Assembly (NCBI GenBank): GCA_964458565.1
Contig: CAYWJO010000001.1
Location: 1-64,000 of the forward strand
Direction: 5' to 3'
DNA: 64,000 nt
From: an uncultured archaeon
GTDB taxonomy: Archaea; Asgardarchaeota; Thorarchaeia; Thorarchaeales; Thorarchaeaceae
In this document: positions 13,349 to 25,463 of the stretch, in pieces
Layout: every line of letters starts with the position of its first letter
Position numbering within the stretch: the stretch's first letter is position 1
Made by a program: the position numbers and the translations under genes
Notes under the pieces: generated by a model
Seen by the model: the letters and a program-made list of their open reading frames with translations, nothing else
Told to the model about the DNA's origin: nothing
The model's database searches: none

Positions 13349-15286
13349 CTACACCTTTGATTCATCAGATAGACCTCGTACAGCCTCTCTCTCTTCATCC
13401 TCAAGTTCCTCCTGTTTCATCCTCGCTCTTCTTGCTCGATGCCAAAGTACGAGTGCTACAGTAATAAGAATGGAGACCACTATGGCTACAGAACCCACTA
13501 TGATGAGCTGTTGTGTCTGAATTGTCTGAAGCGGCTCCAGTGGGTCCAGCGGGTTGAATCCGTTCTCTAGCTCCCATCCATCATCGAAGGTGTCATTGTC
13601 ACTATCAGCTAGCAATGGCGATGTTCCATACACAAACAACTCCTCTGCATCATTGAGCGAGTCCTGATCAGTGTCTGCTGAGAATCGGTCAGTCCCATAG
13701 AGGGACTCCTGGTACTCACTTAGTGTGTCATTATCGCTATCACTGAAGTCAGCCAGTCTGTAGAGGAAACAGTCCTCACTTCCATTCAGTGTGGAGTCAA
13801 ATGGATCAACAAGGGGAAAGTCGGACGATATCGTGAATCCCCCCACATATGCTGTTCCATACTCATCGATAGCGAGCCCACGGGTGAAGTCGTTTCGCGA
13901 TCCTCCAACAAAGGTGGAGTACATCAGTTTATCACCCTGTGGAGAGAACCGAGAGACGAAGGATTCTACCCCTCCATTCGATGTGTTGTCATATGCCAAT
14001 AATGTTGGAAAATCTGATGACCTGGTCTCTCCTGCGACGTAGACATAACCACCCGCATCTACCCGGATAGACTGACCTATGTCTTCACTTGAACCACCTA
14101 GATACGTGCTGTACAGAAGTCCGTTTCCCGTGCTGTTGAGTCCTAGAACAAAACACTGGTCATCTTCTTCTTGAAGTCCGTCGTATTCGGAGTCATAGGC
14201 GTTCTGCAAGGGAAAATCAGTCGATTGAGTATATCCTGTAGCATATACATTTCCTTCCCCATCAATATCAATGTCTTGTACTTCATCTTTACCAGAACCT
14301 CCCAGATAGGTACTGAATACCACGTCATCACCTGATGGAGTCAATTTTGCAACAAACCCATCCCGATAGCCGCCAACTGTGTCATCGAACGCATTCACCA
14401 AGGGAATATCAAAAGAAGTAGAACCTCCTATGTAGATGTAACCATGTTCGTCAACTATGATGCTGTTACCCCGTTCGCTACCATACCCACCAAAATAGGT
14501 CGAATAGAGAATCTCATCACCATCTGGACTCAATTTGGTGATAAAGCAGTCATCCAGTCTATTTCTCCCATAGGTACTATCAAAGGCATGTACTGTGGGG
14601 AAGTCACGTGAGAATGTGTACCCTGTGATGTATGCACATCCAGAGGAATCCACATCGATGGCGTTGGCACGCTCCTCATTGTTACCCCTGATGACCATTG
14701 AATAGAGAAGTTCATCTCCGGTTGGGCTCAACTTAAAGACAAAACAGTCAATCCCACCACTCCAATTACCATACCAAGTCGTTGCAGGAAAATCACTGGA
14801 GTAGGTAGAGCCCGCCACATAGATATTACCCTCATCATCTACAACTAAATCATTGGGATAATCATTTGTTATTCCTCCAATGAATGCAGTAAATACCAAT
14901 CCAGTCTTGTTAAACATGGATACAAAACAGTCTGATTGTGATGGTGTATAACTTCCATTTGGTAAGTCATATTCAGCAGTTTGTTTCGGGAAATCATCAG
15001 AGAAGGTTGAACCAGTGATGTAAACAACATCATTGTCAGAAATGCACACTGAACTGATTTCCTCATATCCATGCCCACCGATGAAGGACGAGAAGAGAAG
15101 ACTTTCAGAATTACTGATATTTTGATTCAGGAATTCATAATGTTCCATGTTATCAATCAATTGATTAGAATCAAGAAATTCAGAATGAGCGCCAGTGTTG
15201 TCTGAAATTGTGAGGACTAACCCAAGTAGAAAAATCATGGTCAAAATAGCACATTTGGTCTTCAAAACTTTTTCATCCCCATTCAT
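13349..15286 (-). CDS. SBBP (beta-propeller) repeat surface protein with Ca-binding DxDxDG-like repeats and C-terminal TM
   Basis: Repeated 'YST(Y/F)xGG..D....I.VD..G..Y..G.T.S.DFP'; 'DSDNDTL', 'DTDQDSL', 'DSDNDTF'. Confidence 0.85.
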   Translation of the reverse strand: MNGDEKVLKTKCAILTMIFLLGLVLTISDNTGAHSEFLDSNQLIDNMEHYEFLNQNISNSESLLFSSFIGGHGYEEISSVCISDNDVVYITGSTFSDDFPKQTAEYDLPNGSYTPSQSDCFVSMFNKTGLVFTAFIGGITNDYPNDLVVDDEGNIYVAGSTYSSDFPATTWYGNWSGGIDCFVFKLSPTGDELLYSMVIRGNNEERANAIDVDSSGCAYITGYTFSRDFPTVHAFDSTYGRNRLDDCFITKLSPDGDEILYSTYFGGYGSERGNSIIVDEHGYIYIGGSTSFDIPLVNAFDDTVGGYRDGFVAKLTPSGDDVVFSTYLGGSGKDEVQDIDIDGEGNVYATGYTQSTDFPLQNAYDSEYDGLQEEDDQCFVLGLNSTGNGLLYSTYLGGSSEDIGQSIRVDAGGYVYVAGETRSSDFPTLLAYDNTSNGGVESFVSRFSPQGDKLMYSTFVGGSRNDFTRGLAIDEYGTAYVGGFTISSDFPLVDPFDSTLNGSEDCFLYRLADFSDSDNDTLSEYQESLYGTDRFSADTDQDSLNDAEELFVYGTSPLLADSDNDTFDDGWELENGFNPLDPLEPLQTIQTQQLIIVGSVAIVVSILITVALVLWHRARRARMKQEELEDEEREAVRGLSDESKV

Positions 15287-18647: not shown

Positions 18648-18738
18648 TGGCGGCTTCCTCAGAGAATCGAACTCTCATCGCTTGCACGATCATGGGTTTG
18701 AAGCCCACGGAACCGGACCACCAGCCCTGGAGGAAGCC
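18648..18738 (-). tRNA. selC: tRNA-Sec (anticodon UCA), 9/4 fold, CCA encoded
   Basis: Reverse complement folds as: 9-bp acceptor GGCTTCCTC/GAGGAAGCC, 7-bp D stem with TGGT loop, 6-bp anticodon stem with CTTCAAA loop, variable arm ATCG/CGAT, 4-bp T stem with TTCGATT, G73-CCA. Confidence 0.97.
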
Positions 18739-18742
18739 CTAA

Positions 18743-19405
18743 TTATAGATTAATTGCCAGGTATTGCTCAATAAATAATTGGGTATCTCTCTTCCACTCG
18801 ATGGATTTCTTTGCTAAATCAGTGGCTATGTCGTTAGGCATCTTCTCGTCTCGTGGTAGATTCTCAATCTTTGATAACCAGCCACTTGTAGATAGTGTAA
18901 TCGGATGCAAATCATCTCCCTCAGTAGCTTTAATCATCATCTCACGACCATGGGCTAATTGGTAATAGATAGAACTTACAACTTCTTTGTTGAGAATGTC
19001 ATGAACTATATGATCCCAACAAGTCTTAGCTACAAGGGCTCTACGCAAGCGACTTTGGTCTTCAGGTTCCAATTCATTATACTTATTGAGACAGGCTTGA
19101 ATAAATTGTGATGTTCCATTCAGATAATTCTTAAGAATAGCCTCATCGTCACCGAAGGCTTTGAGTTCGATGACCTTCTTTGAACCCATAACAGAGACTC
19201 GTATTGCAATGGAAGTATCTTCCACCTTACCCGAAAACTGTGCAACTCCTTCAAAATCTGTACTCTCAGCCTCACCATATCCGGAGAGAAGCATTCCCGA
19301 TTGGGAACCAACTACGTACCAAGCAATTCTGAATACGACATCGGCTTCTGGAACCGAATAAGACAGTGACACTGATTGCGTGTGTTTACTTTCAGGGTCG
19401 TCCAA
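18743..19405 (-). CDS. Hypothetical protein inside the Sec operon
   Basis: 220-aa ORF, GGAGG SD, lies between sepsecS and tRNA-Sec. Confidence 0.75.
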   Translation of the reverse strand: MDDPESKHTQSVSLSYSVPEADVVFRIAWYVVGSQSGMLLSGYGEAESTDFEGVAQFSGKVEDTSIAIRVSVMGSKKVIELKAFGDDEAILKNYLNGTSQFIQACLNKYNELEPEDQSRLRRALVAKTCWDHIVHDILNKEVVSSIYYQLAHGREMMIKATEGDDLHPITLSTSGWLSKIENLPRDEKMPNDIATDLAKKSIEWKRDTQLFIEQYLAINL

Positions 19406-19434
19406 ATGTTCATCCTCCCTTCAGGCGGCAATTG

Positions 19435-22216: not shown

Positions 22217-22627
22217 ATGGTATCACGATCTCTTGAAAAGATGATGCTTATAGCTATCGGACTCTCAGCTGCAGTTATTGTGGGAGTTCCTGTTTTATTG
22301 TATTCGATGAATCTTCTGAATAACACGGGAAGCTATCAAGCAGCTGAAAGTTTTGCAAACCAGTTGCACTCATATGTTGACACAGTAGATAAGACAAATA
22401 CAAGTGTGATTCAAGATTATATTTCTGTACCAGAGGGAGTTACTGTGAGTTCCGATGGAAATATCTTAACAGTGACATATTATATATCAAGTCAGAACCC
22501 TGTCACTTGGATTGAAACTTACAATCACGCGATTGATTTGATACCCCCTGCAGTAGCGGATAATCAAATAGTAAGAGTAGAATTAGTGGGTGATGATATT
22601 CAAATTCGCTTCATGCCTCACCCATAA
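22217..22627 (+). CDS. Small pilin-like or secreted protein
   Basis: N-terminal 'SLE' followed by a hydrophobic helix and a beta-rich domain. Confidence 0.45.
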   Translation: MVSRSLEKMMLIAIGLSAAVIVGVPVLLYSMNLLNNTGSYQAAESFANQLHSYVDTVDKTNTSVIQDYISVPEGVTVSSDGNILTVTYYISSQNPVTWIETYNHAIDLIPPAVADNQIVRVELVGDDIQIRFMPHP

Positions 22628-24174: not shown

Positions 24175-24429
24175 TTAATGACCCCATCGAAGCCGTTCTG
24201 GTTTTGTTTCCTTTTTGTAAGCTTTTTTCACAGTCTTCCAGTGGTCTTGACATAGGTATGTCTTTCTATCCCGAGCATCCTTGACACGTAGATTCGACTT
24301 GCTAATGCTCTCACTGATTCGTACTGTAGCAAATGATCGCTTTGATGCTTTATCGCAGCCAACAATGCTGCAGGTCTTCTTTAATGATGACACTGTCCAC
24401 ACTTCACTGTTGCTCGTGAAGTATTCCAT
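24175..24429 (-). CDS. Small conserved archaeal Zn-binding protein
   Basis: 'CSIVGC' ... 'LCQDH' C3H ligand set; true start probably a little downstream. Confidence 0.65.
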   Translation of the reverse strand: MEYFTSNSEVWTVSSLKKTCSIVGCDKASKRSFATVRISESISKSNLRVKDARDRKTYLCQDHWKTVKKAYKKETKPERLRWGH

Positions 24430-24452: not shown

Positions 24453-25463
24453 TTACGAACTGCTTTTCGGGGTTAATATTGGTCCCTTTGAATAATCAAA
24501 CATCACACGTTCTTCATCATTCAATCTTAGTGTAAGCTTCTGCGTTTCATCAACGGTGCCTATAACAGAGATAGACATTTCATGTTCACCGGCAATTGAT
24601 TTTACTCGATTGATATTTGATTCAGATGTTGCTACCAAGAATCCTAATGAGATAAACATCCTCAACCAATCAGTGAGGTCTATTGTTTCTGGTTTTATAG
24701 TATTTAGTGCATCTATATTTATTATGCCACCGCAGCCAGAATATTCCAACATCATTCCTGCTGTGCCTATCACTCCAGCTACAGAAACGTCCTTTGATGC
24801 ATGAAGAATTTTTTCTTTAGCGAGGTGGTTCATAACAGACAAACGCTTAATGATTTCATCAGGACTTCGGCCTGTAACTGAATCCCATCCAAGTGAATAG
24901 CTTGATCCACGTTGACCCTGTTTGTCAAAAATGAGAACAAGAACGTCATTATTACAAGCACCTCCAGCTGTTATGAGATGTGCTCTCTCAATGATGCCTG
25001 TTGCAGAACCAACAATATATGTAGACGTAGAACTTGGATTTGTATGACCTCGTACAATTGGAACTCGAAATGCGTGTGAGCCCTCTATTAAACCCTCCAA
25101 GAGTGCCGCACCAATATTTTCATCTGAATATGATAATGCAACGGCAAAGGATGTTGGCGTACCACCAGCTGCATAGATATCCATTACGTTTGCTAGAACT
25201 ACATTGAAACCTGCAGCACGAGGATGATGAAGGCATAACTCCTCAACAATCGCATCAGTTGTGTGTAACACAAAATCTGACCGATTCATTCCAATAGCTG
25301 CTGAATCCTCTCCAAGTGAAAAAGGTAGGTCACCCTTGTATGAATGATGACGCAGTTTACTGATGATTTGAGGTAATACAAACTTACGAGATATTCCATC
25401 AAATTCATGAAGAAGCGTAATTATATCATCAAGCGTAGTCAACTCTTCACGCTCATACAACAA
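24453..25463 (-). CDS. AIR synthase/PurM-fold protein (SelD/ThiL/HypE superfamily)
   Basis: 'GEDSAAI', 'ANVMDIYAAGG', 'RGHT', 'SKDVSVAG'. Confidence 0.8.
   Translation of the reverse strand: MLYEREELTTLDDIITLLHEFDGISRKFVLPQIISKLRHHSYKGDLPFSLGEDSAAIGMNRSDFVLHTTDAIVEELCLHHPRAAGFNVVLANVMDIYAAGGTPTSFAVALSYSDENIGAALLEGLIEGSHAFRVPIVRGHTNPSSTSTYIVGSATGIIERAHLITAGGACNNDVLVLIFDKQGQRGSSYSLGWDSVTGRSPDEIIKRLSVMNHLAKEKILHASKDVSVAGVIGTAGMMLEYSGCGGIINIDALNTIKPETIDLTDWLRMFISLGFLVATSESNINRVKSIAGEHEMSISVIGTVDETQKLTLRLNDEERVMFDYSKGPILTPKSSS

Follow-up and report, generated by a model that had tools for sequence, protein, structure and literature searches.

A platform and Vps28-C-like protein encoded among the selenocysteine genes of a Thorarchaeaceae archaeon is probably not the missing selenocysteine factor

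Protein X, the working name used here for a 220-aa product encoded among the selenocysteine (Sec) genes of an uncultured Thorarchaeaceae archaeon, is probably not the missing Sec factor of archaea. Our computational analysis shows that X is independent of the Sec trait, that its whole length is homologous to the module at the C-terminus of Asgard PCI/Ig/platform/Vps28-C proteins, and that its gene position is ancestral. The reading we favor is that X is a minimal, ancestral adaptor of the appendage/Vps28-C class, probably related to ESCRT. The whole stretch of DNA analyzed (the window) comprised 64,000 nt of contig CAYWJO010000001.1 (assembly GCA_964458565.1).

Gene Locus and Family Assignment

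The following features of the X locus were identified in the window:

18743–19405, reverse strand: gene X, 220 aa, TTG start, NCBIfam NF045535 Sel_Asgard
19414–19418, reverse strand: Shine–Dalgarno sequence GGAGG of X, 8 nt before the TTG
18648–18738, reverse strand: tRNA-Sec (UCA), found by ARAGORN; Rfam RF01852, 57.6 bits
19435–20751, reverse strand: sepsecS, TIGR03531, 434 bits
20729–22126, reverse strand: selB/EFSec, TIGR00475, 293 bits
17864–18625, forward strand: pstK, convergent; TIGR03574, E 1e-37, below cut-off
22217–22627, forward strand: 136-aa gene, whose homolog directly flanks X, together with tfb, in Sec-negative genome G311
24175–24429, reverse strand: small basic C2CH zinc-finger gene, directly adjoining X in four Sec-negative families
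24453–25463, reverse strand: PurM/AIR-synthase-like gene (marker 2, sll0787-like); methanogenesis marker 2, below cut-offs

X is separated from the stop codon of the upstream sepsecS by 29 nt, and tRNA-Sec begins 4 nt past the stop codon of X; this position, as well as the presence of its own Shine–Dalgarno sequence, agrees with the first-pass annotation. The genome also carries selD (contig C2:141341-142162), which contains a single in-frame TGA and probably encodes a selenoprotein; the Sec system thus looks complete. A sigma-70 promoter scan, a method ill-suited to archaea, gave nothing above shuffled sequences. At 13349–15286 of the window (reverse strand), inspection by eye showed a 645-aa protein that combines beta-propeller-like repeats with acidic repeats of a Ca-binding-like type and carries a membrane anchor at its C-terminus.

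X is a real gene with 304 homologs at E ≤ 0.001, among which Thorarchaeota was the commonest organism name, and with dN/dS of about 0.1 in Thor pairs. It had been taken for an unknown protein, but the family is already catalogued: X scores 196.7 bits with NF045535 Sel_Asgard, “putative selenocysteine system protein” (cut-off 132), and covers model positions 4–194 of 195. The family is restricted to Asgard archaea; all named matches were Asgard, and none of the 14 control genomes contained it. A hypothetical protein confined to Asgard and often located near secS, efSec, and pstk (e.g., MBD3157761.1) is described in the accessible part of Huang et al. 2024 (PMC11227280); it probably belongs to the X family. 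X resembles these records in scoring above the cut-off, in its Asgard-only occurrence, and in its position beside secS/efSec/pstk; they differ in that neither a fold nor retention in Sec-negative lineages is given in NF045535 or in that part of PMC11227280. Since the family is present in both sources, its association with Sec genes is not new.

Pfam gave nothing consistent for X and 67 family members, and L7Ae was not among the families listed; X itself matched no Pfam family, in line with the earlier statement that it has no L7Ae motif. The protein is acidic, with a pI of 4.9 and a whole-chain net charge of −11, confirming the description of X as not strongly basic. Within the family, the median pI was 5.4, and 15 of 67 members had values above 8. 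A weak search, which also missed known long paralogs, revealed no longer X fusions (e.g., with SepSecS).

Distribution among Asgard Genomes

The same 400 Asgard genomes were searched for X and for SepSecS. Family f1 corresponds to Thor and f14 to Hermodarchaeia, while f22 (Loki) and f28/f29 (Odin-like) were assigned from named relatives. Most assemblies are incomplete, and related genomes are not independent; the meaningful count is therefore five families with X and without Sec against three the other way.

Co-occurrence was high in the two large Sec-positive families: X was found in 78/85 and SepSecS in 71/85 genomes of f1, and in 134/135 and 130/135 genomes of f22, respectively. The two proteins also agreed in several small families and were both absent from f9–f13 and f24–f27. 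X without SepSecS was found in f14 (19/19), f29 (3/4), f28 (2/3), f6 (3/4), and f2 (1/1); the fourth f29 genome contained only a paralog of X. In these five families, X was thus present in 28 of 31 genomes and SepSecS in 0 of 31. SelB was detected in none of the 30 genomes tested from them, while positive controls were detected. Among the X-bearing Sec-negative genomes, G304 consists of one contig and is 98% complete. The two best candidates for tRNA-Sec in Sec-negative genomes G299 and G304 were rejected as tRNA-Leu(TAA) and tRNA-Ser(GCT). The former, located at a contig end (L117:4-89, G299:C43), is a false positive that exceeds the Rfam gathering threshold for tRNA-Sec; by eye, it resembles a bacterial sequence, and contamination is possible.

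The opposite pattern was found in three families. SepSecS was encoded in 5/5 and SelB in 3/5 genomes of f30, where X was not found with two profiles (0/5), including two genomes rated 100% complete. Sec-positive families f18 and f19 had only a 118–144-aa C-terminal half of X (loci L045, L049, L050, and L114), whose gene is either about 11 kb away from sepsecS or on a different contig; in 3 of these 4 genomes, the marker-2 gene follows sepsecS within about 80–220 nt. Half-length copies in loci L070, L073, and L074 lie between PEP-synthase-like and ribosomal uL16-like genes (names assigned by eye). Outside Asgard, the control M. jannaschii contained SepSecS and SelB but no X.

X, single-copy in at least 14 families, therefore fails the profile test as a dedicated Sec-pathway factor: it is kept after Sec loss and is missing or halved in some Sec users. 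The first-pass annotation had presented it as a candidate missing Sec-pathway factor, a claim to be given up if orthologs occurred equally in Sec-negative genomes; orthologs in 28/31 genomes of five families lacking SepSecS and SelB are largely such a case, and the claim was not upheld.

Selection and Orthology

The dN/dS values were calculated by the Nei–Gojobori method, and many pairs were near saturation. The median was 0.065 in f14 (51 unsaturated pairs) and 0.18–0.23 in the small Sec-negative families (1–3 pairs each), compared with 0.10 in Thor and 0.13 in Loki. The Sec-negative copies are orthologs under purifying selection (dN/dS 0.07–0.23). Residues D131, R154, and E155 are invariant in all 67 aligned members, Sec-positive or Sec-negative, and Y147 and K205 are nearly so. 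X of Sec-negative G311 retains the invariant residues along with a Thor-specific helix 2–3 motif and groups with Thor proteins at 100/99 support in the tree. The backbone of the tree was unresolved, and only the grouping of f2 with Thor was taken as an order of events.

Fold and Homology

The structure of X was modeled by AlphaFold2 with 67 sequences (pLDDT 93.1, pTM 0.90). Five strands and two helices (residues 1–111) are followed by four helices (114–216), which matches the earlier description of a beta-rich N-terminal and a helical C-terminal half. The two domains are encoded as follows:

19073–19405, reverse strand: residues 1–111, alpha/beta domain of the adaptin-appendage platform (TBP-like) type, according to the AlphaFold2 model and fold matches
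18746–19072, reverse strand: residues 112–220, Vps28-C-like four-helix bundle with D131, R154, E155, Y147, and K205

The N-terminal half matched the appendage platforms of beta2-adaptin (3h1z, Z 10.6), gamma-COP (1r4x, Z 10.2), alpha-adaptin (1w80, Z 9.9), and beta4-adaptin (Z 9.4), with rmsd 2.5–3.1, 92–104 aligned residues, and 5–10% identity. This platform fold scored equally with START/KA1/COR folds (KA1 Z 9.2–9.7, including the KA1 fold of the RNA-binding enzyme TUT1), and the context of the long paralogs favors the appendage. X shares the platform fold with the adaptin/COPI appendages of AP-2 alpha, beta2, AP-4 beta, and gamma-COP; it differs from them in beginning directly at the platform, the preceding Ig-like beta-sandwich being absent, and in that peptide binding by X is only predicted. 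An N-terminal steadiness box was not found in X, whose N-terminal half is the five-stranded alpha/beta domain.

The C-terminal half aligned with the yeast Vps28 C-terminal domain (CTD) over 93 of 94 residues (Z 11.0, rmsd 2.2). When the bundle was folded alone and searched by Foldseek among 350,542 PDB chains, the two best matches were Vps28-CTD (2j9w; TM 0.75/0.80, rmsd 2.0, probability 1.0, with E of only 0.06). In VIA-align, Vps28 was tied with unrelated four-helix bundles. Both folds of X are common and tie with unrelated ones; hence, structure alone is not decisive. Whole-protein Foldseek matches to RnlA and KICSTOR were discarded as spurious (rmsd about 14–15 Å). A feature-based search of the ESM Atlas gave no usable match. 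The top-ranked Atlas entry for X was the 788-aa PCI cluster, in agreement with the appendage + Vps28-C class.

Sequence evidence for the Vps28-C homology is independent of the structural evidence. The NF045535 model matches, over its whole length, the end of 530–800-aa Loki-group proteins containing PCI/winged-helix repeats, many of which have Pfam VPS28 in the last 90 residues and some a weak GAE match (Ig-like, GAE_BBS1) before the platform/Vps28-C module. In HHalign, the X family aligned with the C-terminal 214 aa of the Loki PCI proteins over 203 columns (99.0%, E 3.4e-18). In about 20 ESCRT loci, a bundle profile built from X orthologs and paralogs picked the canonical Vps28 gene that adjoins the Vps22 gene. 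An X-only bundle profile aligned with Asgard Vps28-C at 81% and E 1.2e-5, most strongly over helices 3–4; the score was 34–35, compared with at most 15.7 in 30 column shuffles and 14 for the reversed profile. Pfam VPS28 was not reached by X orthologs, and Vps28 was also missed when PDB sequences were searched with HMM profiles of X (the paralog profile gave only E 0.71).

Multidomain Asgard proteins with an adaptin appendage and Vps28-C were described by Makarova et al. 2024; as far as the consulted sections of PMC10936438 define the class, X is its platform + Vps28-C tail standing alone. They have in common the platform followed by a Vps28-C-like bundle, with full-length homology of X to the Loki PCI tail. 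In contrast to the class as presented there, X has neither an Ig-like subdomain nor a longin/TPR/PCI/HTH extension and is single-copy and widespread, while the multidomain architectures are patchy. With eukaryotic and canonical Asgard Vps28, X shares the C-terminal four-helix bundle but lacks the steadiness box, lies outside the ESCRT cluster, and conserves other helix-2 residues. The R154/E155 motif is not common to canonical Vps28-C, so the partner of X may differ.

Several related proteins were recorded in passing. Conserved 790-aa Loki proteins (L075:6932-9295 and relatives P0142–P0261) have an N-terminal Cys-rich region followed by UFL1/DDRGK/PCI-like winged-helix repeats, an Ig-like domain, the platform, and Vps28-C. 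Protein P0123 (268 aa) carries the C-terminal 130 residues of X behind an unrelated N-terminal region, being either a fusion or a chimera. Bundle-ended relatives were found in the genome of the window (C4:9042-10085, C15:29574-30104, C57:18254-19123, and C5:101794-102390) and in loci L036, L037, and L040; those inspected have a coiled-coil N-terminal half and an R-[DE] motif on helix 2 and form a further Vps28-C-like group.

Gene Neighborhood

The gene sepsecS is located directly upstream of X in 28 of the 30 top-scoring loci (Thor and Loki) and is the most persistent upstream neighbor of X in Sec-positive lineages. This adjacency was found in seven families, including f4, f16, f17, f21, and f23, and was kept in Loki, where selB has moved. 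Linkage to Sec genes is thus conserved; the C-terminal halves of f18/f19 lie away from sepsecS.

In f4 and f16, the order is selB–sepsecS–X–marker2–zinc finger, which suggests that this order is ancestral. The marker-2/AIR-synthase-like gene follows sepsecS–X in f4, f16, and f17; it was considered as a better Sec candidate and rejected because it is present in Sec-negative f14 (14/14) and f6 (3/4). The X block of f14 and f29 is as in the window, with the zinc finger, a zinc-ribbon coiled coil, a 105-aa gene, endA, DUF47, and uppP; in f28 and f6, X stands beside the zinc-finger gene. In G311, X is flanked by tfb on one side and by the 136-aa gene's homolog on the other, the locus being the neighborhood of the window minus pstK, tRNA-Sec, sepsecS, and selB. 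This synteny points to an old Asgard block selB–sepsecS–X–marker2–zinc finger, near endA, DUF47, and uppP, from which the Sec genes would have been lost several times while X stayed; X would stand among Sec genes because it is a member of this block.

The zinc-finger protein (C-x4-C...C-x2-H, basic) is the most persistent neighbor of X after Sec loss. Its gene is located 3–66 nt from X in most loci of four Sec-negative families; in f4 and f16, which are Sec-positive, it lies 1.4–1.5 kb downstream of X. The pair is convergent in Hermodarchaeia and is not co-transcribed there. Searches of Pfam and NCBIfam gave no family above noise for this protein, only a weak SAP30L match (E 0.05). Beside X in G280, an ORF (L072:7310-7771) looks like the N-terminus of HypA joined to the C-terminus of the zinc-finger protein and is a fusion or an assembly chimera.

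ESCRT Context

The ESCRT cluster of the same genome was located as follows:

C2:45760-50835 (L084): Vps22/36-like, Vps25, Vps4, ESCRT-III, and Znr-PH-CC-SB genes

Vps22/36-like was named by Pfam and the others by eye. The Vps22/36-like protein of this cluster has an N-terminal steadiness box. No canonical Vps28 was seen in the cluster; X or its coiled-coil relatives may therefore supply that domain in this genome. The bundle-only copies of f18/f19 retain the helix-2 face, so it is not there merely to pack against the platform. Vps22/36 was found in the five Sec-negative X-bearing families (19/19, 2/2, 3/4, 4/4, and 1/1); as Vps22 is nearly universal in Asgard, finding it together with X has little diagnostic value, and X is missing from many lineages that have ESCRT. 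When X was co-folded with the Vps22/36-like protein of its genome, the score was 0.00 against a mark of 0.32, a result that counts neither way on binding. Among the loci examined, X was never within an ESCRT gene cluster; this absence, set against the persistent sepsecS–X adjacency, counts against an ESCRT function.

Proposed Role and Alternatives

We propose that X is a soluble two-module adaptor, the smallest of the Asgard appendage + Vps28-C class, in which the platform binds a partner and the bundle docks on ESCRT; we consider the chances that this full description is correct to be even. According to the sections of PMC10936438 consulted, appendage platforms serve as hubs for peptide binding, and Vps28-C connects ESCRT-I with ESCRT-II. 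By analogy with these families, the platform would recognize a short peptide motif in a partner or cargo, in the manner of adaptin appendages. The bundle would dock through the conserved helix-2 face (Y147, R154, E155) on the ESCRT machinery, with ESCRT-II or the zinc-ribbon ESCRT-I-like protein as a candidate target. X would thereby join cargo to ESCRT without a steadiness box. The first-pass idea of an adaptor rather than an RNA binder fits the fold and charge of X, while the dedicated Sec role attached to it does not stand.

An adaptor of the same fold might have been co-opted from ESCRT to other housekeeping of the block, such as tRNA processing, translation, or protein turnover, possibly by binding the zinc-finger protein, which we regard as possible but not likely. 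The finger gene stands directly beside X in four Sec-negative families and near it in f4 and f16, the block contains endA, tfb, and pstK, X is acidic and the finger basic, the invariant residues of X are unlike those of canonical Vps28-C, and yeast Vps28-CTD does bind a zinc finger (the Vps28-CTD/NZF complex, 2j9u). However, the finger is basic and of the C2CH type, which sets it apart from NZF, and it has the look of a nucleic-acid binder; the gene pair is convergent in Hermodarchaeia, and adjacency within an ancestral block needs no physical link. A non-essential scaffold that bridges PSTK, SepSecS, and Sep-tRNA-Sec and also has another job independent of Sec is kept alive by the persistent sepsecS–X adjacency in 28/30 Thor and Loki loci and in f4, f16, f17, f21, and f23 and by the joint presence and joint absence of the two proteins described above; it has a precedent in SepCysE, the scaffold of the tRNA-dependent cysteine pathway (PMC5424206), and a Sec link is suggested by NCBIfam and in the available part of PMC11227280. 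We nevertheless find it unlikely: the Sec-negative family with the best sampling shows no relaxation of selection (0.065 vs. 0.10–0.13), the invariant residues and the Thor-specific motif persist in G311, Sec-positive f30 has no X, f18/f19 lost X from the sepsecS–marker2 junction, and M. jannaschii uses SepSecS and SelB without it. SepCysS was rejected as a substitute partner after Sec loss because it fits f28/f29 only; it was absent from f14 (0/19), f6 (0/4), and f2 (0/1) and cannot replace the partner in these 24 genomes. No match to SepCysE appeared in the family, PDB-sequence, or fold lists for X; the absence of SepCysE and L7Ae folds from the fold-search lists does not exclude them.

That X is the SBP2 equivalent, binding the eukaryote-like Asgard SECIS and recruiting SelB, appears highly improbable. 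X lies in the Sec locus of an Asgard archaeon, a group in which no SBP2 is known according to the part of PMC11227280 consulted; its N-terminal half resembles KA1 folds, including that of TUT1, and the 15 of 67 members with pI above 8 are in favor. However, X and SBP2/SECISBP2 are alike in proposed role only: X has no L7Ae, is acidic (pI 4.9, family median 5.4), and has a distribution untied from Sec, being kept in genomes without SelB and SepSecS, where the two best tRNA-Sec-like matches checked were tRNA-Leu and tRNA-Ser, and absent or halved in Sec users. A combination, in which an ESCRT-derived X physically binds SepSecS or the PSTK–SepSecS–tRNA-Sec complex in Sec-using Asgard and is retained by a second job in lineages that lost Sec, seems to us rather improbable; if true, X–SepSecS binding would couple selenocysteine synthesis to the ESCRT/membrane system or provide a SepCysE-like scaffold.

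Significance

The X family and its Sec neighborhood were known; the literature searched contained neither the assignment of X to platform + Vps28-C nor its distribution independent of Sec. One published candidate for the SBP2 equivalent still missing in archaea is struck off the list by these results, which also suggest that the NCBIfam name of NF045535 is misleading. X emerges as a widespread, single-copy, and probably ancestral Asgard protein composed of two eukaryote-type trafficking modules. As a small and soluble protein that occurs in an Odinarchaeia-like thermophile lineage, it would make an easy bait for the partners of Asgard Vps28-C domains.
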